Assembly: GCA_052426225.1 (NCBI GenBank)
Contig: JBNJNM010000010.1
Location: 558,001 to 622,000 of the forward strand
DNA: 64,000 bases
Direction: 5' to 3'
Source of the DNA: Zancudomyces culisetae HAW-14-8
Taxonomy: Eukaryota; Fungi; Kickxellomycota
The position numbers and the translations under genes were made by a program. Below are positions 27,934 through 50,494 of the stretch, piece after piece. A model generated the notes under the pieces. It saw nothing but the letters and a program-made list of their open reading frames with translations. It had not been told where the DNA came from and did not search any database. Numbering within the stretch: the first letter of the stretch is position 1; each line of letters begins with the position of its first letter.

Positions 27934-30900
27934 CTAAAATTTATTATGAACCACTTCATACTCATTCATATCAACTTCCCATTCTGAATCTGATGATGAC
28001 GATGAGGAAGATGAAGAATGGTGGTTATAACCTTCGTCTAGGGAAACATACTGCAAGTCATCGATACCTATAGTAGCAGGCTCTGACTTTAGTAATGATG
28101 ACGATGATGGGATTGGTTTTGTATCAGTAACTGACTGCTCCTGTTCCTGCTGTTTAATAGCAACCGAGTTATTAGAAAGAGTACTAGGATGATCAGCAGT
28201 ATCTTTGTTAAGGCTATCATCGTTTGCAGATAGTACAGGGGAGAATGGATTTTTTGTAGTAGTAGTAGCAGTAGTAGTGCTATTTGAAAGACGAAAAACA
28301 ATTTTTTCAATTTCTTTGGTAGAATAATCAAACGAGTTTGGGTCATCTGATGGTTGAGCAGAATTAGTATTGTTCTCTGTAACTTGTGGTTTTTCGGTTA
28401 GCTGTGTTGATTGTCCCTGAACTGAGGTAGGAGTAGTTCGAGGCACAACACTTGTGGGTTTATCAGAAGCTGAAGGTCTTTGAAGTACAATGTCTTCAAT
28501 GATTCTAGAAGAGTACTCAAAAGGGGATGGGGAGGCATTGTTCATCAGGTTGGAGATGGTGGTGGTATTTGTAGATTCTGTTGGAGGTAATACAGGAGAA
28601 GTTATTATAAAGCTGGAAGAGCGAGAAGGAGCGGAACGAGAAGTGGATCCAGTAGGGGATGAAGAGACGGGTGTAGGTTTTTGGTCTTGTTGCTCTGATT
28701 GTGGTTGAGTTTTAGTTTCATTTACATCTTCACAAACAATAGGAACAATGGCAGGAGATGAACGAAGATTTGAATTGGTAGATTGTATAATTGGTGATAG
28801 TAAAGATGCAGATGTGTTTGCAGCTGCTGTGATTGTATTTGTGTCTGTTGTGGCATTAGATACAATGGGTTCATTGATTGGGTGATCTTCAGGTGACCTG
28901 GTTACCCAAGAATAATCAACATTTGGAACAGGCAATTGGGGGTTAGCCTGTGTTGGGACCTCTTCACTAGGGTAAAATTGGGGTTGGGGTTGGGGTTGGG
29001 GTTGAGAATTCAAAGTTTGTTCAAAGTAACCACCGGGCATTTTAACACTACTTGATGATGAGGATGTTTGGTTTGGATTTGAATTTGAATCGGAAGTATT
29101 ATCGCTTTTAGTAGCTGTAGTGGCAGAAGCGGATGAAGAAGACTGTTTTTCAGAAGGAGCTGTTTTAGAGTGAGTATGAGAACAGTATTCTGAATTCAGT
29201 TGTGTAAATATGTCTTTGTAAGAACGTCGTGCATCAACACCCTTTTTAACTAAATCATCGAAAAATTCAGATCCAGCCTTTGTTATACTATCAAGCATGG
29301 GCTGCAGACTTTCACCAAGGGAGTTCGTGTATTCACGAAGAGCATCTCTATGCTTTGAGTACAAACATTTGTTGGCAAAGGATGGGTGTGGGAAATCATA
29401 GAACCCTCTGCGTGTTGAATACCCATAGGTACAATTGTTGTCGTGAGGATTGGAAGGGTAGCTTCCAGGATGATGATGAGGAGGATGATGTGGAGGATGA
29501 TGTGGAGGATGATGTGGAGGATGATGAGGAGGATGATGAGGAGGATGATGAGGAGGGTGATGAGGAGGGTGATGAGGAGGGTGATGTGGATGGTTTTGGG
29601 GATTATCTTCAAAGAAAAAGCGGAATGGACACTGACCATTGAATGAAAATGGATGGCGGTGATGATGGTGATGGTTACGGTTATGGTGGTGATGGTGACG
29701 ATGGCGATTAGGATTACGATCCTTGTCACAAGGAGAAGAGTGTCCAAAGTGATGAGCATGTTGATTTGTTTGAGTAGATTTTGTATTAGGAGAATCTGAG
29801 GAACCAACAGCATCAAATGCAGTGGATTCGTCTTTTGTAGTTGCTGTGGAAAAGACTTGGATTTCACACCAAAGAAGAGAACCAAACAATTGGCCATCAG
29901 GAGTTGCTAATCTCCATTCGCTTTTATATTTTCCAGGTTGTGCTGGTGCAACCATATCGACTGCTACACTGACTTTTTGAAATGCTTCAGCGCTGATTAC
30001 GGGGAAATGTGTAATACTGTTACTAAACATATTGTGACCATTCACAAATACAAGGCGAGTACCATGTGGCCAGGCCCGACTGCCTACATTAGTAACTGAC
30101 CATATCTTGACAAATGGTTCCGATGCCTCCATCACAGTATTGTCTGGAATCGTTACATCTTCTACAAAATATGAACCCAGGTCTCCTAGCATATATTCGG
30201 GGTATACATGCGAAAGTGTCTGTACTGGCTTTGTTGCACCCTCAACTTTGTTACCACCTTTGTTGGATCCTCCGCCACATTCAAAATCGCACACTGTAGG
30301 TAGCGATGGGTCAGGAATACAAAAACCTCCGGGTGCGTTGGCCGCTTTCTCCTGTGTATCCACACCTACACCCATCATTGCTAGTGCCACTTTATTTATT
30401 TCCCTCATCTCTTGATCAGCAATAACCTGTTTTCCAACTTTAGGGTCGGAGCTAGACTTTGCTTTACACGACGCTGATCTAGATGATTTGGCGGCTGCTT
30501 TTTGTTCCCGTTCTACCACTTTTCGTTTAAGTTTTTCTACTTTTTGCTTCACTTTTTCTGATTTTTCCTTGAGTTTGAAGTATACTGCCACTGTTTTATC
30601 TGCCTTGTTCCCATCTTTAGATGACTCAACAGCGGCAGATACCATAATATCTCGTGGATTTTGGTTTTCAGTACCATTAAACCAAGACAAAGCACCGTCC
30701 TCATTGCTGTTCAACCGTAATGCGGATAGTCGCTTCGTATTTTCCATATTTTGTTTTGTCACAAGGAAATCCATAACATATTCCAATTTCTTTTGCTTCT
30801 CTTTCAACTTTTGCAATTTCCGAATCTCAGATTTTGTCATTGATTTGGTGATATCTTGTTCCACATTTTCCAATTTTCGTTCTTTATCTTTACCACCAAC

Positions 30901-32193
30901 ATTATCTTCATTATCGGATAGTATTATTGCTACAAAATCTTTGTGTTGAGGATGTACTTCGCTAGCGTTTTTCATACACACTTGACAAAGGTCGTATTGC
31001 TCCTCACATATATCACATGTGTATGCCCGTCCCTTGGATACTTCTGCACCACAGTTGTCACATATAACTACCGTTTCGTAAACATCTTCTAGCACAGCAC
31101 CGCCATTTGGCGATTGCGTTAGAGGCATTCCAGATCCAGTAGCCATATTTATTGCGTTATAATATGCCTTAAACTCGTGATTTTCTCCAAATTTGGTCTT
31201 GTGTTTTTCTATCTCCCCAACTCTACATTTTCCGCAATAATCAAAATCGGGACATTTGGTGCATTTCCAACGCATACCATTGACTATTCCGTCACAATTA
31301 TCACACATTACGGTTAACTGTGTATCATTATCATAACCAGCGCTGTTGCCATGGTTTCCATACAGTCTTTCACCAAAAACCAATGAAGAGTCTATATCAT
31401 GTGGTACTGCGGCAAGTGGGTGGTAGTGCAACGACCCCTTTCTCCTATTAGTATCATATCGACAACTCTGACATTCGTTATAGTCCTGACACTCGACACA
31501 TTTCCACAATCCACCAACAACCTTGTTTTTACAAAAGCTGCAATACTCTTCTTTATTTTCCTGCTCTTTCACATTGGGCATAATCGCATTTATGGGTAAC
31601 ATCATTCCACTTGGAGCACCCACAGATTGAGTAATATCGCTGTTGTTTTCATTGCTGACTGGGTCCATCGGTGCTTCAAAAGGAATGTTGATGTTTGATA
31701 CATAAGTTGGAGGCCGTTGTTCATCCAACCAGATGTGTTGTGGAGCATTTGTTCCCTCTGGAATCAATGCTCCTGCTTCAATTTCACTTCGCATCGTTGA
31801 CCTTGGCAATGGTACTGAGGCGGATGCAAGTGCAAACTCAGATACAGATGCAGCTACGGATCCCGATTTCGAAGCTTCATTAGCATCAGTACTAGCTCCT
31901 GTTGGAAGTATATTGCTTATGGTATTCATCGTATTTCTTACAGTCCCAAACAAAGTCTCCATAGCAGCTTCCGGGAGTTTACCTTGTGTAATCTCCAATT
32001 GTTTTACCTGAGTCGCAAGTAACTGTAAAGTATCATATATACTTCCAAAACCTGTATTATCGGTAGTAGCATTATTGTTGCTTACTGGAGCTGTCCTTGG
32101 TTCATTATTTTGACCTTGTGGTTGTGCTGGTACTGCTGTTGTTTCTGCTACACGGTCCTTGTGTTCATTGATTATGCTTTTGTTTTGATCCAT
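27934..32193 (-). CDS. NBR1: NBR1-like autophagy receptor (3 ZZ zinc fingers, FW domain, putative C-terminal AIM/LIR)
   Basis: Three ZZ fingers (CSFC..WKCVECQDYNEC; CDNC..RWKCTKCPDFDYC; CDNC..CDIC..YDLC), FW domain 'FVEDVTIPDNT...FVKIWSVTNVGSRAWP...GKYKSEWRL...FGSLLWCEIQV' and acidic tail 'SDSEWEVDMNEYEVV'. Confidence 0.88.
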   Translation of the reverse strand: MDQNKSIINEHKDRVAETTAVPAQPQGQNNEPRTAPVSNNNATTDNTGFGSIYDTLQLLATQVKQLEITQGKLPEAAMETLFGTVRNTMNTISNILPTGASTDANEASKSGSVAASVSEFALASASVPLPRSTMRSEIEAGALIPEGTNAPQHIWLDEQRPPTYVSNINIPFEAPMDPVSNENNSDITQSVGAPSGMMLPINAIMPNVKEQENKEEYCSFCKNKVVGGLWKCVECQDYNECQSCRYDTNRRKGSLHYHPLAAVPHDIDSSLVFGERLYGNHGNSAGYDNDTQLTVMCDNCDGIVNGMRWKCTKCPDFDYCGKCRVGEIEKHKTKFGENHEFKAYYNAINMATGSGMPLTQSPNGGAVLEDVYETVVICDNCGAEVSKGRAYTCDICEEQYDLCQVCMKNASEVHPQHKDFVAIILSDNEDNVGGKDKERKLENVEQDITKSMTKSEIRKLQKLKEKQKKLEYVMDFLVTKQNMENTKRLSALRLNSNEDGALSWFNGTENQNPRDIMVSAAVESSKDGNKADKTVAVYFKLKEKSEKVKQKVEKLKRKVVEREQKAAAKSSRSASCKAKSSSDPKVGKQVIADQEMREINKVALAMMGVGVDTQEKAANAPGGFCIPDPSLPTVCDFECGGGSNKGGNKVEGATKPVQTLSHVYPEYMLGDLGSYFVEDVTIPDNTVMEASEPFVKIWSVTNVGSRAWPHGTRLVFVNGHNMFSNSITHFPVISAEAFQKVSVAVDMVAPAQPGKYKSEWRLATPDGQLFGSLLWCEIQVFSTATTKDESTAFDAVGSSDSPNTKSTQTNQHAHHFGHSSPCDKDRNPNRHRHHHHHNRNHHHHHRHPFSFNGQCPFRFFFEDNPQNHPHHPPHHPPHHPPHHPPHHPPHHPPHHPPHHPPHHPPHHHPGSYPSNPHDNNCTYGYSTRRGFYDFPHPSFANKCLYSKHRDALREYTNSLGESLQPMLDSITKAGSEFFDDLVKKGVDARRSYKDIFTQLNSEYCSHTHSKTAPSEKQSSSSASATTATKSDNTSDSNSNPNQTSSSSSSVKMPGGYFEQTLNSQPQPQPQPQFYPSEEVPTQANPQLPVPNVDYSWVTRSPEDHPINEPIVSNATTDTNTITAAANTSASLLSPIIQSTNSNLRSSPAIVPIVCEDVNETKTQPQSEQQDQKPTPVSSSPTGSTSRSAPSRSSSFIITSPVLPPTESTNTTTISNLMNNASPSPFEYSSRIIEDIVLQRPSASDKPTSVVPRTTPTSVQGQSTQLTEKPQVTENNTNSAQPSDDPNSFDYSTKEIEKIVFRLSNSTTTATTTTKNPFSPVLSANDDSLNKDTADHPSTLSNNSVAIKQQEQEQSVTDTKPIPSSSSLLKSEPATIGIDDLQYVSLDEGYNHHSSSSSSSSSDSEWEVDMNEYEVVHNKF
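29480..29587 (-). repeat. 12-bp tandem repeat x9 encoding (HHPP)9
   Basis: Plus-strand units: GGAGGATGATGT x3, GGAGGATGATGA x3, GGAGGGTGATGA x2, GGAGGGTGATGT x1. Confidence 0.95.
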
Positions 32194-34657
32194 CTTTTGC
32201 TTGTTTTTTTTTGTTTAATTTTGTTCAGTTTTGTTTCCTAGACTTTTTTTTTTAACGTTTAGATTCCTAGTTTTAAAATACAATTCTATTCTGCTTGCGT
32301 TAATATTTTCTCTCGAGTTTTCCTGGTTTATACTACCTCTTTCTATTATATAATATCTGCTGTTCACTATTCCGTTTCTTATCTAAATATTTTCTGTTTT
32401 TATGAAAAAACGATTGTCAATTAGTATTTCTTCGAATATATTGGCTTTACTGATTACTCTGAAGTAAGTTGGTGTTGTGAATATATAATAATACCAATTA
32501 TAGAACCACAGGTTTCGACTTTATCCCTTTGATACCGTTTTAGTTTGAAAATATAATATACCAGAAAAGAACGATGCTCCTTTTATCTGCTTTTATTTAA
32601 TGTGTTTATTAGATTACTTTTTTCTATTGCTGTTAGAGTATAAAATTGTAGAACCTAAGTACAAGAATGATAAATCTGCTACAAGAGCCCGATTTTGCTT
32701 TTATATATTTTTAGCCCACCATCAGAATTTAAGAGCAGTTCAATTAAAGCCTACCCAATAATTATGGAAATAAAAAGAAATAAAAAGGCTTGGTATTTTT
32801 TTCAACTTGCTCTATAGATAGCACCTAAAAAATCACTGAAAAAATCACCCCCGCCTACTCTCCCCCCCTCCCCAGAATGTCTAGTAGGTTGTAAACATGC
32901 TGCTTTGGTACATTAATTTCCCCCCTTTCATTTTCTGAGAAAATCTTACGATATTACATAAAGTAGTCAATGCAGTAAAATTTTAGAAACGATTATGCCT
33001 ATAAAGAAAAAAATAAAGCTGGGAAATGGTCTTCTCTGTTTGGGTCATCTTTATTGGCTTACAAATCCTTCTATTTCTGTTAGTTTCCGCAACCTGAAAC
33101 AAAACAAATTGGTGCAGCTTTAGCAAATCACGATGGAATGAACTAGCCTTACAAATTTGCTTTTTTTTTTCTGAGCATTTGAGTATTTGCCAAGAAATAG
33201 ACGCACAAATCATGTGGTTTATTCTCTATTTTTATGTTTTCAAAATGTCATGACACTAAAAGAACAGAAATATCATGATGCCTGTGAAGCTGATATTTCT
33301 TTTGTTCTCGTGCTTTCTACACTGACGTTCACTCTTCATATACCTTCTCTCTCCATTCCTTTTATTTTTTTGGAAAAAATATAATCAAATGGTAAAAGTT
33401 TATCCTATTGCAAGAATCGTTTAGATTTTGGATCTCTCGAATGCCAATCAAACTCAGATCCTACAACCCATAAAACTTTCCTGTCCTCTCACCTCGGAAA
33501 AATAAAAGGAAGCGGAAACGCCACCTCCTTCCCTCCTTCCCTTCTTCCTCACCTGGTTTTATTTACTATTAACCACACGTACGCATGCACATGTTAACAT
33601 ACATATGCAAATTTTTCCAATCCCCATTTCCTGTAATTTTGTATATCTTCTATTGCTACTATCTTCTATACTTGTGTTTCTTTATACAATACCTTTCCAT
33701 TTACTATTTCCGGTTATGTTGGACAGCTTCATCAAACCATAAAACCATGCTTATTTAGAATTTTTTAAAAAAAACACTTGGGAATCCATTAAACAATGCT
33801 TGTAATGCAATGCTTGTAGACTTGGCAGAGCGGCATTTAGGCAGTTTTCACTCCCTATTTTTTCTTTACTTGGAGCTAAAAGTGATAAAAACAAGAGTAC
33901 CGGAATATCTGCACACAGATTGGGTGGAGGAAGGGAGGGAGGAAGGAAAAACTTTTCATTTTGATTATATTCCTTATAGTTCCACTCTGTTCTTTCTTGC
34001 TTCTTGGTCTATTCTACCTCACTTTTCAGTAATTATACCACACAACAAGCATTTGAACAATAATATCAACAATAACAACAGTAATAATGAGGTATTGGAC
34101 AACCGTGCCAAGTAAAATATCGAAAATCCATAAAACCCTTACCCAAAAATATACATCCACCTCTCCTTTCTCACACTTCTTATTCCCATCATTTTTACTC
34201 CGGTATTTGTCCTATAAGACAAAAATGTACAAGCAATCACATTTAGATTGTAATCCACTTTGCTTTTCCGGAATCTCTTTGTATTTCACAAATGAATATA
34301 CATAAAGACAGGTTTTATCCAATTGATTATGACCTTTAAATCATCGCTTGCATTATACAATTTTTTAGTTCAATTTCTTTTATAATTGGTGGTCGTCGAA
34401 TCCAAGTGATATATAGTCCCAACTCTATATATCCTATTTGTTTAATGCCTAAAAACACAATTACATATTAAATCCCCCCTCCCACTTCAACTAGGACGGT
34501 ATCCATAGCTCTGGGTTACTCTCAACTCTTTTGAGGTGAGTACTAGTAATAAAAAAAACAATAACACTATATTACACTAATCTTAATGTGTATCAATATT
34601 GTTAATTATTTTATTTATCAATAAAGCTGGATAAAAAATAGAAAATAGAAAGTATAA

Positions 34658-35839
34658 TTATATCCCATCATTATCGTTATCGTTATTGTTAAAGTTAATA
34701 GCCAATTTTTGATCATCAATATTGTTAACCACTGACATATTAGTTGTAATATCCCTAACATCGCTAGTCAAAATAATCTTTTTTAGTCTTCTGTTAATTC
34801 CCGGATCATCCTTAAATTCCTCCGTAGTTGAGATAAATACTCGCGGAAACATTTGGGGGATTACCACATATACATGCCCCACACTAATATCCCTACGTTG
34901 CTCAACATCTGCCAAGTGGACTTGGGTATACCTACTAAGCTGTGCTAAATCCACTTCATCAAATACAATCCCATCATGACGTTGACCATCTATATCCCTT
35001 TTTACTTTTAGTTCTTTTAGTCCCGCAATTGTTGATACCAAGAGTGGATTTTCAAACAATGACAGCGCTAACTTGGTCTTGCCAATTCCAGTTGGTCCAA
35101 CAATATACAGCGACTGTTTTTTCCGATCCCATTCATCCAATCCAGGGATTGGGTGAAATCGGTATGTCTGTCTCAACAGTACGCCCGGTGTTAGTCCCGC
35201 TGCCAGTGCTCTTTGATTTTTTTTTTCTTCCTCGATCTCTTCCTTCACCATTTTATACACATTTTCAATAAGTTTGTCCATTCTGTCCATATTTATCACA
35301 TATCTACTTAGAGACCTCATTGTGCGACCCGGATTTTGTAAATAAGCTTTTGAATACTTCTCATTATATTTTATTATCTTTGTAATTGCTTCTATTGGAT
35401 CACTTCCCTGTTCAATTATCTCGGTTACTGTTAGCTTTTTGAACTTCTTAACCTCCTCGCGCTTTACCTTTGCTGTATACTTATCTATAACCCCCTTTAA
35501 TTCATCTTTATCAATATTGGTTACATACTCCTCTCCTTTAGCAACATGTTTAATTGCATCATCTAATGATCTGGATGTTCTGTAATTTCCGTGTACTATA
35601 TCATCACCTAGCTTTAAGTCATAATACGTATTCCTCCTGATGTTAAGCTTATTTGCATATTCCAAAAACGCATAAATGTGATGACTACTATCTGTACACT
35701 TTTCTTGACAAATTACATACTTTGAGATAATATTGTTCTTTGTACGCTCCTCCAATTGCTCTAAAACTGATTCCATACTCAACTCCGTCTCAAGATATGT
35801 TAAAAATACCTTTTTAGAACTAAGCCTAAACCCAATCAT
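34658..35839 (-). mobile_element. rep: Endogenous CRESS-DNA-virus (gemini/genomovirus-like) Rep gene, HUH domain + SF3 helicase, intact 393-aa ORF with substituted catalytic residues
   Basis: Motif I 'FRLSSKKVFLTY', motif II position 'ICQEKCTDSSHHIYAFL', GRS-like 'NTYYDLKLGDDIVHGNYRTSRS', motif III position 'IKHVAKG', Walker A 'GPTGIGKT' (35098-35075), Walker B 'IVFDEVD', motif C position 'PRVFISTT' and Arg finger 'INRRL'. ATG at 35839, no introns. Confidence 0.9.
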
Positions 35840-36536
35840 TTTCAATATTCTTTATTTTATTCTTGCTTTATTTAGTTCTTCTTTTAATGTAATATACTTT
35901 AAAAACTCTTCTGTTTTTATTTATATCTTTTAAAAAAACAGGGGAAAAGTGACGTTTTCCATCTACTTTTATATGAAAATGAATATTGAATGGTATTATA
36001 CTTTAATACTAAAAAACAAATCTTTTCTTTTTGGAATATTCTTGAAAAAACCGTTTAAATGTAAGCCAAGTTGAGAATTCCTAGGATTTTTATACAAACT
36101 TTTCTTTTATTCTTTTCTTTTATTCTTTTTTTCTTATTCTTTTTTTCTTTTTTTGCCTTCTTCCACCTAAATAAGTATATTAGGAACAAGGAAAGAAATT
36201 AGAAAAAAAAAGCCCTGATATTTTTATTTTGGAATTTTGACCTTAACTACATAATTCAGGCAATAAGCTCAATGTATAATTAAAAGCTTATGGTAATATC
36301 GTACTTTCGCCCCCACCCCCACCCCCCCCAAAACTTTTTTTTTCTTGCTGCTGATTAAAATGAAGCAAGAAAATCACCAAACAACCAAGTAATAGTAAAT
36401 AATGATAGATGCTCCTTCTTGTACTCTTTTATTTTTTGAACAGAAAAGAAAAACACCACAAAACTAGGAATAATACTAAATATATTGTCAGTTATAAATA
36501 ACCAATACATAAATAAAACTAGATATTGAATATAAA

Positions 36537-45570: not shown

Positions 45571-48500
45571 ATTCCCACCCCCTTCTCCTCTACCATTATA
45601 TACGTTTGTATTTACATTTCTTCTATCTTGATTTTCTGTATACCCTTTTTGTTGTTGTTGCCGCTGCTGTTGTTGTTGCTGCTGTGCTATTCTTCCTCCT
45701 ATTTTATATTCTGCCGCTTGTTGCCCAAACTATTTCATTTACATTTCACATTTTTATTTTCTCTTCTCTACAACACTATCTATCTATCTATCTATCTATC
45801 ATATTCCCCATTTACTTACCCCCCTTTGTGTTGTTGTTCCTATTATTGTAGCCATTTCTCTGTTTTCTTCTTTTGTATTATCCTCTATATTTTTTCCTAT
45901 TTTTATTTTATCCCCCCCTTTTTTTTTAGAAAAAATTCCATTTTTACTATATGTTTATTTATCACTATCTTATATTTGCCTCATTCTATACGCCTACTCA
46001 ATTAAAACACCCCTATTTTTATTTCCTCTTCTCATCACTACCATATATTCATCACTACCATATATTCATCATAAACAAATTTCTAAAACATCTTTTAAAT
46101 CTTTCTCTCTCATCTAAATCCCTCCACTCAAAATAAACACTCTTTCATTCCCTCCTCTCATTTTACTATTGTTGCTTTTGCTTTTGCTTTTACATTCTTC
46201 TATGCAGCTTTTAATAAAATTTTAATTCCATCCTAAAAGTTCAGCTTATCTTACCTCTTATCTTCCCCCCTCCTCAGTCTTTTTCTTTTGGCTCTATATT
46301 TGTTTTGTTTTAATTTACCTGCTATTTTTATAATTTAAATTCTTCTTCCTAGTGAATCTTCAATCATCAAGATTATTTCCTAAAATCCCTTTTTTTCTTG
46401 TCTTGTTTATCAATCCAAGTTTTAATCCACCTTTCTTTCTTTCTTTTAATATTAATATATATTTACAATTCTTTTCCCAAGCTCTCTTTTTCGGTTATTA
46501 ATGGACCTCTTTTTATTTTCCACAAAATTTCTACTTTACATTTGCTTTTGTAAGCTTTTATTTTCCTCTCCTTTTCCTTATTTTAGAAAAGCCTCTGTCT
46601 CTTCCTTATTTTTGACCTGTGGGATTATAATGTTTAATGAATTTATGTTTGTTGAATTGCATTAACAATTGCTGTTTGTTTATTTATTCTTTTGCACAAT
46701 CCCATCTATTTCTTGCATTTGTCTCACTTGTGTTTTTCTTTTCTTTTTCTTTAAATCTCTTTTTTTTTAATCTTTCTCTTACTTTTACTCTCCAGATATA
46801 AAATAACGTATATATTAAATAAATATACTTGCTTCTAAATACATTATAAAAAGCTAATAATAATAAACAACAATAACAAAGCTTTTTTTCTATTTCTTTT
46901 TCTACTATTTACAAATTATTTATTTGGTGTTTTTTTATTAATATTAGTATTATTTTATTTTATTTTATTTTATTTTATTTTATTAATTTTTTATTTTTTT
47001 GAAATTAGACTAGTAGTGGTTTATTATTAATAATGAAAATGTAATAAATGTTTTAGAACAAAAAATTGCCGCATTTATTTCATTTACCATGCTATGTATT
47101 TCGATAATTTCTAAAAAGAAAATATAAAATAATAATTGAATTTCATTTACTACAATTGATTACAAAATTAAAGTGTTCCTTGTACGTAATATTGTCTATT
47201 TTTCCCACTATCATCAACACTATAACCAAATTTCCATACTATTTTCATTATTTTTATTTTTTTGTAAAAAAAATTTGTGCGTTTCACGTCCCAAAAAATA
47301 AAACGAAATACAATTACAAAACCACCATCCCAGGATTTTTTTGGTTTTTTTCGTTTTTTTCGTTTTGTTTTATTTTTATTTTTATTTTACTCGTATTTAA
47401 ATTCAAAAAATAATGGCTCTGTAATAGCCAACATCTTTTTACAATTGTGAACTATTGAAAAACTTGACATTTTTCACCAGTTATCACCCATTCCTTTTGC
47501 CTTCCCCCACCTCTTTTCTCCCACTCCCTTCATCACTGTCTTTTTCTTTTCCTTTTTCTCTCCTCATTTTTTTAAACCTGATTTTTTCATTTCATTTTAT
47601 TATTTTATTATATTTTATTTTATTATATTTACAATTTTCAAATCAATAGATAATGTTAAATTATTGTGGATTAAATCAGTAAATATACAGAAATATTATT
47701 ATTTTCTTTATTTGAATACAACATTACGACGTGTTTTATTATAATGGATTGCTTTTTGCACCTTATAAAACCCATCATGATATTCCTTTAATAAATCTTA
47801 ATATTCAATCTTTTTCCCTTTCCTCAATATTTACATTAATTTTTCATATTATTTAATTTTATTTTACATTCCAAATTAACCTAAATTGACAAGCATTTCT
47901 TTTGAATATTTTGAATAGCCTTTTTTTTTGTAGCTCATTACAAATTATTCTAAAAGATCGCCTCCTCTCTCGCTTTCTTTCCTCCCTCTTCTTTCCCCCC
48001 CACCCTCCTCACTAAGTTTAATTACCCTCAGTCCCTTTACATACTTTTTAGAAATAAATGATCATATTTTCATATCATTTTTTCTCACAAATCTTGTCCC
48101 ATTTGCTCTACCTCTCTCTCTCTCTCTCCCCATTATCTCTAATTCTTTTTTATTTTACGCCTTTAAAGAATGTACAACCAAATCTTTCCATTTTTTACCA
48201 ACCCTAAAACTACCCTCTTTCCTACATCTTTTTCTCTCTCCTTTCCCCCCCAGCCTAAGAACCTTTATTCATTCTTTCTTTTGTTTATTCACAATACTTT
48301 GGTCTGTATAAAAATAGCTTTTGGTTTCTTTTTCTATTTTTTTTTAATATCCCATTATTCATTATTCATTATTCATTATTCGCTATCCATTTACCGTTTG
48401 CCATTTTCTCATCGTCCTCCTCCTATATACCACAAAACTAATATATATTTCATTTTTTCTAGTCATTAAAACACTTCATTTGCCACACTTTCTTTTTCTT

Positions 48501-50494
48501 TATTTTCTAACTTTTATTTTTTCCATGTGTGAACAAATTCCCGAACTACTACCGCAACGGACCCTGAAACCATTTCATGTCAATCCATTTCCATAAACAC
48601 ATTTTAATATATTTTTAATATGCTACATTGCCAATACCCTCTCATTTCATTTCATTTATATTTCATTATTCCTCTAACCCTGATTTTTTTTTACCAATCT
48701 CTGGATTGTTACATTCATTCTTGTATCTAAACATGTTACTATCACTTTACTAATTCCATTTTTTCTTTTTCTTTTTCTTTTAATCGTTTTGGTTTTCTTG
48801 TGGTTTTTTTTTAAACATATTGCAGTTATTTTTAATTGCTCCCAATCTTGTTTACTAAAAGATTCTGAACCAATTTATATTTCCTCAACTTTTTGGCCCA
48901 ATTACATTGATTATGGGCTAATTATTCTAATACAAAGAGTTTACTTATTCATTCACTCGTTTTTTTTTTCACGCATTGTTGTCCAATTTCATAATTGAAA
49001 TCATTGATACTACAATTTACTCTAAAATAAAATAATATAATAATAAAATAAAACATTCACACCCACACCCACACCCACACACAAATATAAATATAAATAT
49101 AAATATAACTATATACACATTACCAGATTCATCTAACCTATAAACCAGTTAATTATTTTATTTCATCCCTTGTATTCTCCGTGAATCATTTTTGTTTTTT
49201 CTTCTCGAATATCTTGAACATTACTAATATTAATAACCATAATTTCAATAACATTAGCATTGATAAAAATAATCATTAATTAGCATACTAGACTTATTGG
49301 GCAATTAATTCAAGATCCCAACATCCTCAAAACACATCCCCCTTTTTTTTTTTTATTTTTCTCGTAAACTAAATGTATCTGTCTGTCTAGTTAAAGTAAC
49401 AGTTCTGTCACCAAGGTTCATTAAAAATATTATCCGTTTTTAGTTGTATTTTGATTTTTTGGTTTTTTGCGATTTAAAGCCACAAAGCAATTCTTTTTAT
49501 TTTTTTCACGCTCTTATTGTACATCTCTGTGGATTATCATTAATTCACTCATCTCTCCAGCTCACACCCCTCACCCCCTACAACTCGCCTTCTCCATCTC
49601 TTTCCCCCTCCCTCAATCTCCTTTTATTATAGTTTTCTTTGTTTGTACACTTTTATCTTGACTTTTTGCATTTATTTTATTCTGTTGGATTATAAAAAAC
49701 TTTAAAAATTAATTTATCCTCCCCTCCCTCTCTCCCTCTCTCTTTCTCTTTCTCTTTCTCTTCCTACGTGAAGTTCATATGATAACTATCCTTCTTCTTC
49801 ACCTACCTCTTCTTGATTCTCACACTAACAGGGATCACCAAGTCTCATAAAAACGGTTTATACAAGAACCTAAAAGTACACCAAGTTGTAGTGTACAAAC
49901 TCGCCGCAATAGACGCCGAAACTACCATCCATTTACATTTTACATAGATTGCATAAAACGTCGACCCAATAAAGTACAATTTTTGCATCAATTAGGATCA
50001 TTTCATAACAGAAATATATCAAAAAATACTTTAAATCGAGTTTATCTGGATTGAATTCCATTCAATTGAATTGAATCGGCAAGGAGAAATGTCAATTCAT
50101 TTCCTTTCCCTTGATCTTTTATTCACTTGCTATCCACTTTTATCATTTTGCTTCACCATCCAATTTTTATTTGGAAAGAAAATCAAATTATCTTTTTTTT
50201 TTTAACATCAAGTGGGAAAGTATTTGCTTGTGTGTATAAATCATGGACATGAATCCGCTTACATTATAATTTCATTGATGAATATGCAAAATAAAAATAA
50301 AAAAATAAACAGTAATAATAATAAATCCAATGAAAAACAAGTTTCTTGGCTTGTAAAATACATTTCTTGGAGATAAAACTACAAAGCTAGAGGGGCGGAA
50401 GAGAAGTGTAGCATTTATAGTGGAAAAATACTATTATTAATAGAATATAGGCAGAAATTTAAACACAGTATAGAGCCATTAGATATAAAACAAA

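Follow-up and report, generated by a model that had tools for sequence, protein, structure and literature searches.

The window analysed here, a 64-kb stretch of Zancudomyces culisetae DNA, contains a reverse-strand open reading frame derived from a CRESS-virus replication initiator (Rep), lying between two host genes (Table 1). When the frame was re-read we recovered the coordinates given in an earlier note on this DNA and zero internal stops over all 393 codons; stop-free runs in 2000 shuffled versions of the region reached 204 codons at most. The gene had also been called intronless, a status deduced from the open frame. Both GC content and codon usage are host-like, the latter at 0.77 lying inside the host range of 0.64-0.81, a measure that does not separate the hypotheses weighed below. 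The exact protein is absent from a collection of 15 billion sequences in which two other genes of the window are present, and is therefore not annotated there.

Of the names previously given to the neighbours, NBR1 stands on its PF16158 match and ZZ fingers, while INTS7, a match below the cut-off, is only suggested. Several ZZ fingers occur in the NBR1-like protein, along with a long His/Pro repeat, (HHPP)n, around residues 870-910, and the upstream gene is a single frame rich in low-complexity inserts whose weak INTS7 match is N-terminal. The 2.4-kb gap separating the Rep frame from the NBR1-like gene (32194-34657) contains no ORF longer than 118 codons and no recognised feature; a 9-bp hairpin lies within it at 34408-34433. 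Elsewhere in the window, positions 46001-50000 have a low GC content (25-31%) and a strong C- and T-skew without long ORFs, and a host peptidase finds its best matches in Coemansia, the top identity among broad-coverage matches being 44%, to Smittium mucronatum. These matches point to a host in the Kickxellomycotina, probably of the Harpellales.

The locus does not look like an integrated whole CRESS virus, neither a capsid gene nor a nonanucleotide stem-loop having been found beside Rep. When the flanks were compared with 110 ORFs from 43 related loci, no match beyond the Rep frame itself had an E-value under 0.99, and no perfect stem of at least 7 bp surrounds a nonamer; the count of NANTATTAC is 18, against 15 expected. 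The window holds no second Rep copy, and no terminal repeats beyond low-complexity matches were found around the frame. One Rfam match in the flanks, to a miRNA, was sub-threshold and of low complexity and was rejected.

Table 1. Positions in the window of the Rep-derived frame, its predicted parts and its neighbours
Feature	Position	Strand	Remark
Upstream host ORF, 2025 aa	36537..42614	-	INTS7 only suggested: PF24436 E 0.072, below cut-off
TATA-like TATAAAT	35919..35925	-	86 nt upstream of Rep ATG; weak signal, AT-rich DNA
Rep-derived ORF	34658..35839	-	ATG 35839 to stop 34658; 393 aa plus stop
HUH nuclease-fold domain, aa 4-109	35513..35830	-	Pfam PF00799; predicted intact fold (AF2)
Motif I, F12-L-T-Y15	35795..35806	-	kept (alignment of relatives)
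E46-K-C48	35696..35704	-	Glu kept, conserved His column replaced by C48
Motif II, H54-I-Y56	35672..35680	-	second metal-binding His column replaced
ssDNA-bridging-motif-like segment, H83-G-N-Y-R-T-S-R-S91	35567..35593	-	largely kept
Motif III, H98-V-A-K101	35537..35548	-	substitution at the catalytic Tyr column; Lys retained
Helical linker / oligomerisation region, aa 111-214	35198..35509	-	extended compared with most relatives; modelled with lower confidence
SF3 ATPase/helicase domain, aa 240-362	34754..35122	-	structure match to PCV2 Rep ATPase
Walker A, G248-PTGIG-K254-T255	35075..35098	-	intact
Walker B, D294-E295	34955..34960	-	D294 kept; Glu probably tolerated, as 5 further rows have it
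G321 at DNA-tracking beta-hairpin Lys/Arg column	34877..34879	-	alignment of relatives
T338 at sensor-1 (motif C) Asn column	34826..34828	-	effect uncertain
Arginine finger, R350-R351	34787..34792	-	intact
Asn/Asp-rich disordered tail, aa 380-393	34661..34702	-	pLDDT < 50
AATAAA	34610..34615	-	42 nt past Rep stop; weak signal, AT-rich DNA
NBR1-like host gene downstream (ZZ fingers, N_BRCA1_IG)	27934..32193	-	PF16158 E 7e-31

The nuclease and helicase halves

Judged from its sequence and predicted structure, the frame is a CRESS-virus Rep by descent, with an HUH nuclease joined to an SF3 helicase. Pfam Gemini_AL1 (PF00799) matches residues 4-103 with an E-value of 5.5e-9 (36.5 bits, cut-off 24), and a domain search finds the P-loop. 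An AlphaFold2 model built from a 132-row alignment has a mean pLDDT of 84.5, with 83-98 per block of ten residues in the nuclease domain. The predicted nuclease superimposes on the TYLCV Rep (7vg8) with Z 17.1 and rmsd 1.8 over 105 residues, and the predicted ATPase domain on that of PCV2 Rep (8xms) with Z 9.8 and rmsd 2.7 over 112 residues. The Rep fold proposed earlier is thus matched in both halves, with the reservation that a model built from an alignment leans to the family fold and so speaks for compatibility with an HUH fold rather than for stability.

Within this predicted fold the residues that cut DNA are replaced. The three altered motifs had been read before as H54-I55-Y56, H98-V-A-K and E-K-C-T-D-S, and all were found again, Y56 as codon TAT at 35674-35672, H98 as codon CAT at 35548-35546, and E46-K-C48-T-D-S51 with its codons as described. 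In an alignment to TYLCV/TYLCSV Rep structures, Y56 coincides with the second HUH His and H98 with the catalytic Tyr, the positions of His61 (metal ligand) and Tyr106 (nucleophile) in the wheat dwarf virus Rep as given in PMC7826260, which also defines the ssDNA-bridging motif. Among the matches listed, these columns are nearly invariant, with His at column 56 in 131 of 136 relatives and Tyr at column 98 in 134; column 48, where the frame has Cys, is His in 121 of 136. The catalytic Tyr column is replaced in 0 of the 132 non-Smittium relatives among those matches. The predicted protein lacks the HUH/HUQ metal pair and the motif III Tyr of active rolling-circle initiators, and the previously proposed loss of canonical nicking is well supported at sequence level. 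Y105, earlier named as a possible source of catalysis, was rejected as a substitute nucleophile, its column being variable (Tyr in 63, Phe in 48 and Trp in 6 of 132 Tyr-keeping relatives). The acidic third ligand column holds G102; we did not count this residue or E295 as a firm lesion because both also occur in motif-intact relatives.

The list of lesions drawn up previously was right for the nuclease sites but overlooked three changes in the helicase, G321, T338 and E295. Among the matches listed, the corresponding columns are Lys or Arg in 116, Asn in 130 and Asp in 131 of 136 relatives, respectively. The beta-hairpin Lys/Arg is described as contacting ssDNA during translocation (PMC8780604, PMC8406172). 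At sensor 1, an Asn-to-Ala change is reported to abolish the ATPase of PCV2 (PMC8406172), and Thr is given as a natural CRESSV6 variant that can hold water (PMC8780604).

The earlier label of gemini/genomovirus-type Rep fits the Gemini_AL1 nuclease and fails for the helicase half. According to section 3.2.3 of PMC8780604, gemini- and genomovirus Reps lack an arginine finger, with Asn at the second position; the double Arg R350-R351 therefore excludes Geminiviridae and Genomoviridae as described there. By features alone, the predicted protein fits the CRESSV6-type Reps on the Geplafuvirales side, which PMC8780604 describes with a geminivirus-like nuclease, a double-Arg finger, a small residue in the beta2-beta3 loop and a branched residue in alpha3. 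The loop trait is a small or acidic residue, and the mapping of the loop column was made in the present analysis. A Replitron or Helitron transposase was rejected on the SF3 helicase fused to Rep and the lack of terminal repeats; as outlined in the Replitron preprint, Replitrons have Rep alone without a helicase and Helitrons a Y2 Rep with an SF1 helicase, with terminal repeats or hairpins. Further context is found in PMC13499601.

Relatives in Smittium and in viral sequences

A search of 1.84 billion representatives gave 1741 matches at E <= 0.001, and the best 150 of these 1741 were used; 137 of 153 rows were kept by length, the query included, which leaves 136 relatives. The best identity in this search is 42% over the matched stretches, and no orthologue above about 50% identity was found among the representatives. 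The nearest known Rep among the matches listed is 32% identical, so that no target virus is in hand. Word-based protein searches returned 4 relatives each, a single-protein scan of viral contigs returned no relative and a plasmid search no match to the Rep protein. Scans with the alignment recovered loci of viral (40) and metagenome (16) origin. Their best segments reach 22-41% identity, and none of them could be assigned to the Smittium group. In 10 of the 13 loci inspected out of these 56, all distant relatives, an ORF of at least 240 residues runs on the opposite strand, and by eye we judged these ORFs capsid-like from their basic N-termini.

Ten of the 20 matches whose names were checked, the top match included, are proteins annotated in the genomes of Smittium megazygosporum, S. 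culicis and S. mucronatum, the second ten having been picked because they grouped with Smittium in the first tree. The Smittium genomic Reps (PVV03168, PVV01280, OMJ11002, OLY81937, OLY85352, OLY79699, OLY79389, OMJ22025 and PVV01092), already auto-labelled as Rep in the databases, are at most about 34% identical to the protein from the window, and near-identical pairs occur. Of the 9 Smittium clusters that include a nuclease domain, 4 lack the Tyr together with one or both of the His residues, one of these 4 having a Tyr one column off. These nuclease-dead, full-length Reps (P0115, P0145, P0105 and P0027; OMJ11002, OLY81937, OLY85352 and OLY79699) come from two species and keep 10 of 39 nuclease invariants against 35 of 40 in the helicase, with motif I partly misaligned in two; they were found by helicase similarity, and the comparison is therefore biased towards a kept helicase. 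The model of OMJ11002, the sole one of the four modelled, is still HUH-folded (Z 15.3, rmsd 2.4 over 103 residues). The remaining five clusters keep the HUH and Tyr columns and, taken with the Smittium branch in the trees, suggest that related active elements reached such hosts; PVV01280 is a motif-intact Smittium Rep. The gene models of the motif-keeping copies (P0006, P0032, P0164, P0107 and P0161) look damaged or partial, with a missing segment, an unclear motif I or truncation. No large gaps interrupt the alignment of the nuclease-dead ones.

The query and the Smittium Reps fall together on one side of a branch with support of 93/97 in a tree of 46 rows and 85/92 in a tree of 22 rows under a mixture model; the grouping was not recovered in the tree without the nuclease domain. 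The four nuclease-dead Smittium Reps cluster together in two trees (100/98 and 95/98). The query falls outside their group in every tree, though a union was not rejected (AU p 0.17 and 0.26). The query keeps the first His, and two of the four keep the second, differing lesions that suggest separate inactivation. In a FastTree tree the query joined P0126, a pairing flagged as long-branch attraction, and later trees were built without P0126. As a group of full-length, nuclease-dead proteins that have a largely intact helicase and long N-terminal extensions, the four Smittium Reps are a stronger candidate for domestication than the gene in the window.

Selection, decay and the role of the protein

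At columns at least 90% invariant among the 136 relatives in the matches listed, the query differs at 5 of 20 (C48, Y56, H98, E295 and T338), compared to 97% retention in the relatives (P 0.0003). Retention is 22 of 25 at moderately conserved columns and 58 of 62 at hydrophobic ones, a pattern that uniform decay fits poorly (binomial P 0.003, likelihood ratio test P 0.028); because the relatives were gathered for their similarity to the query, its score at the moderately conserved columns is inflated. Nuclease and helicase have lost invariants about equally, 7 of 10 being kept in the former and 8 of 10 in the latter (P 1.0). Under an analytic neutral model, with the divergence taken from the lesions at about 0.09-0.12, the probability that decay leaves the frame open is 0.0004-0.02 for five lesions, 0.002-0.03 per copy for four, and 0.02-0.13 if only the two core lesions are considered. 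Selection is favoured on the open-frame probability at the four-lesion estimate, a value that depends on the model and on ascertainment and rises if many copies exist. On this calculation, the kept structural columns and the recurrence of dead copies in Smittium, the claim of co-option over decay made in the earlier note is favoured, with copy-number ascertainment counting against it, and we regard co-option of any kind as somewhat the more probable course.

As the best reading we tentatively propose that selection in the host may be maintaining the frame, which would serve as a dominant-negative decoy for related viruses with circular ssDNA. A dominant-negative role is suggested by the predicted anatomy of the protein and by precedent. 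The donor would have been a CRESSV6-like virus of Harpellales-type fungi, and the loss of nicking would have removed a risk to host DNA. The disarmed Rep would keep its hold on origin ssDNA and would join Rep hexamers as before; the parts that such a decoy would use (motif I, the ssDNA-bridging segment, the helical linker, Walker A and B and the arginine finger) are retained. Such a subunit could neither cut nor pull DNA and would therefore occupy origins or stall mixed rings. A bolder form of the proposal, which we consider unlikely, is that Harpellales repeatedly domesticated their own CRESS-lineage Reps as a nuclease-dead restriction of ssDNA viruses, this gene being an independent, less eroded case that acts as a poison subunit without DNA tracking.

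The frame could instead be a moderately recent viral insert, neutral or nearly so, in which early hits perhaps removed harmful nicking and no stop or frameshift has yet arisen. The core replacements themselves would suit such a history, as His-to-Tyr makes up 27-39% and Tyr-to-His 20-28% of single-step outcomes under transition bias, among the commonest. Smittium genomes carry several copies each, some with broken-looking gene models, so an intact frame may be a survivor met by ascertainment: with 20 decaying copies, an event of probability 0.03 is expected in 46% of genomes. E295 and T338 are possibly natural variants, which lowers the estimate of decay. Against this stand the open-frame probability for four lesions, the kept structural columns, and the lack of any capsid or origin remnant next to a Rep whose inspected viral relatives mostly carry a long opposite-strand ORF. 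Taken together, these points leave a neutral insert somewhat unlikely. A part of a non-autonomous mobile element would agree with the multi-copy Rep elements reported from Tuber (PMC3198968) and with the near-identical Smittium pairs. That reading, or a stray viral contig brought in by misassembly, is very improbable beside host-like composition, host genes on both sides, and a window with neither terminal repeats nor a second copy.

Other readings concern what the protein might still do. It may have been co-opted as a cellular factor, for instance an ssDNA-binding ATPase that helps to repair DNA or to control telomeres or transposons, in the manner of HHV-6 U94. Intact Walker motifs and arginine finger, together with a sensor-1 Thr that is natural in CRESSV6, would allow this, and the grouping of the four dead Smittium Reps across two species fits an old domestication. 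The query, however, lies outside that group in all trees (with the union unrejected) and has no close orthologue among the representatives searched; its DNA-tracking Lys is lost, and sensor-1 replacement by Ala kills the PCV2 ATPase. We regard a cellular role of this kind as quite unlikely. A rewired active site, in which Tyr and His have exchanged places so that Y56 is the nucleophile, H54 and H98 hold the metal and nicking persists, would account for reciprocal replacements at two active-site positions and for the retention of E46, H54 and K101. Chance alone yields a reciprocal pair in 5-11% of double hits, the one relative with Tyr at column 56 retains its own Tyr at 98, the acidic third ligand is Gly here, and the arrangement occurs in 0 of 132 non-Smittium relatives among the matches listed, which makes rewiring highly doubtful.

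Precedent for the decoy comes from several captured Reps. The apvRep of avipoxviruses is a CRESS Rep with the HUH motif and usually the Tyr inactivated and Walker A/B kept, for which PMC10193959 likewise proposes a dominant-negative defence; it differs in its carrier, a DNA virus, in its donor from the circovirus side, and in having expression and purifying selection demonstrated there, whereas the frame described here keeps the arginine finger and sits in a cellular host. HHV-6 U94 also has dead nuclease motifs and kept helicase motifs, with a parvovirus origin and a herpesvirus host (PMC10193959). DeRep, an endogenous parvoviral Rep of the degu, is an intact frame in a cellular genome whose product attaches to viral DNA and lowers the replication of a related virus; it is parvoviral and mammalian, and the part of PMC10384997 used here describes no catalytic loss. 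Endogenous geminivirus-like Reps, some intact and transcribed, were reported from fungal genomes in 2011, with motifs still recognisable and no selective catalytic loss described in the portion of PMC3198968 consulted. Closest are the Smittium genomic Reps, of the same lineage in two of three careful trees; the four dead ones differ in having lost most nuclease motif residues while mostly keeping the helicase, and in extensions absent from the query. We found no paper on nuclease-dead fungal Reps, or on Harpellales or Smittium Reps, in the literature searched, most subscription papers lying outside it. Smittium inserts may be listed in the survey of endogenous CRESS sequences that Zhao, Lavington and Duffy made in 2021, or in its supplements.

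Endogenous CRESS Reps in fungi are already known, as are nuclease-dead captured Reps in large DNA viruses, whose function is an open question. That question would become testable in a culturable cellular host that carries several disarmed copies with two or more distinct lesion patterns, related genomes having catalytically intact relatives. Such a host would also be a sign that insect-gut fungi have an ssDNA virus lineage not yet described and, should the decoy model prove right, of virus-derived protein immunity in fungi.

Altered Reps were also seen among JGI sequences. P0097, P0162 and P0163, from a metagenome, have lost the HUH motif and have eroded helicase motifs, and lie outside the Smittium side of the trees. 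P0009, of 967 residues, consists of seven tandem Rep nuclease domains with several altered HUH motifs and no helicase, and members of its cluster sit on contigs of up to 42 kb.
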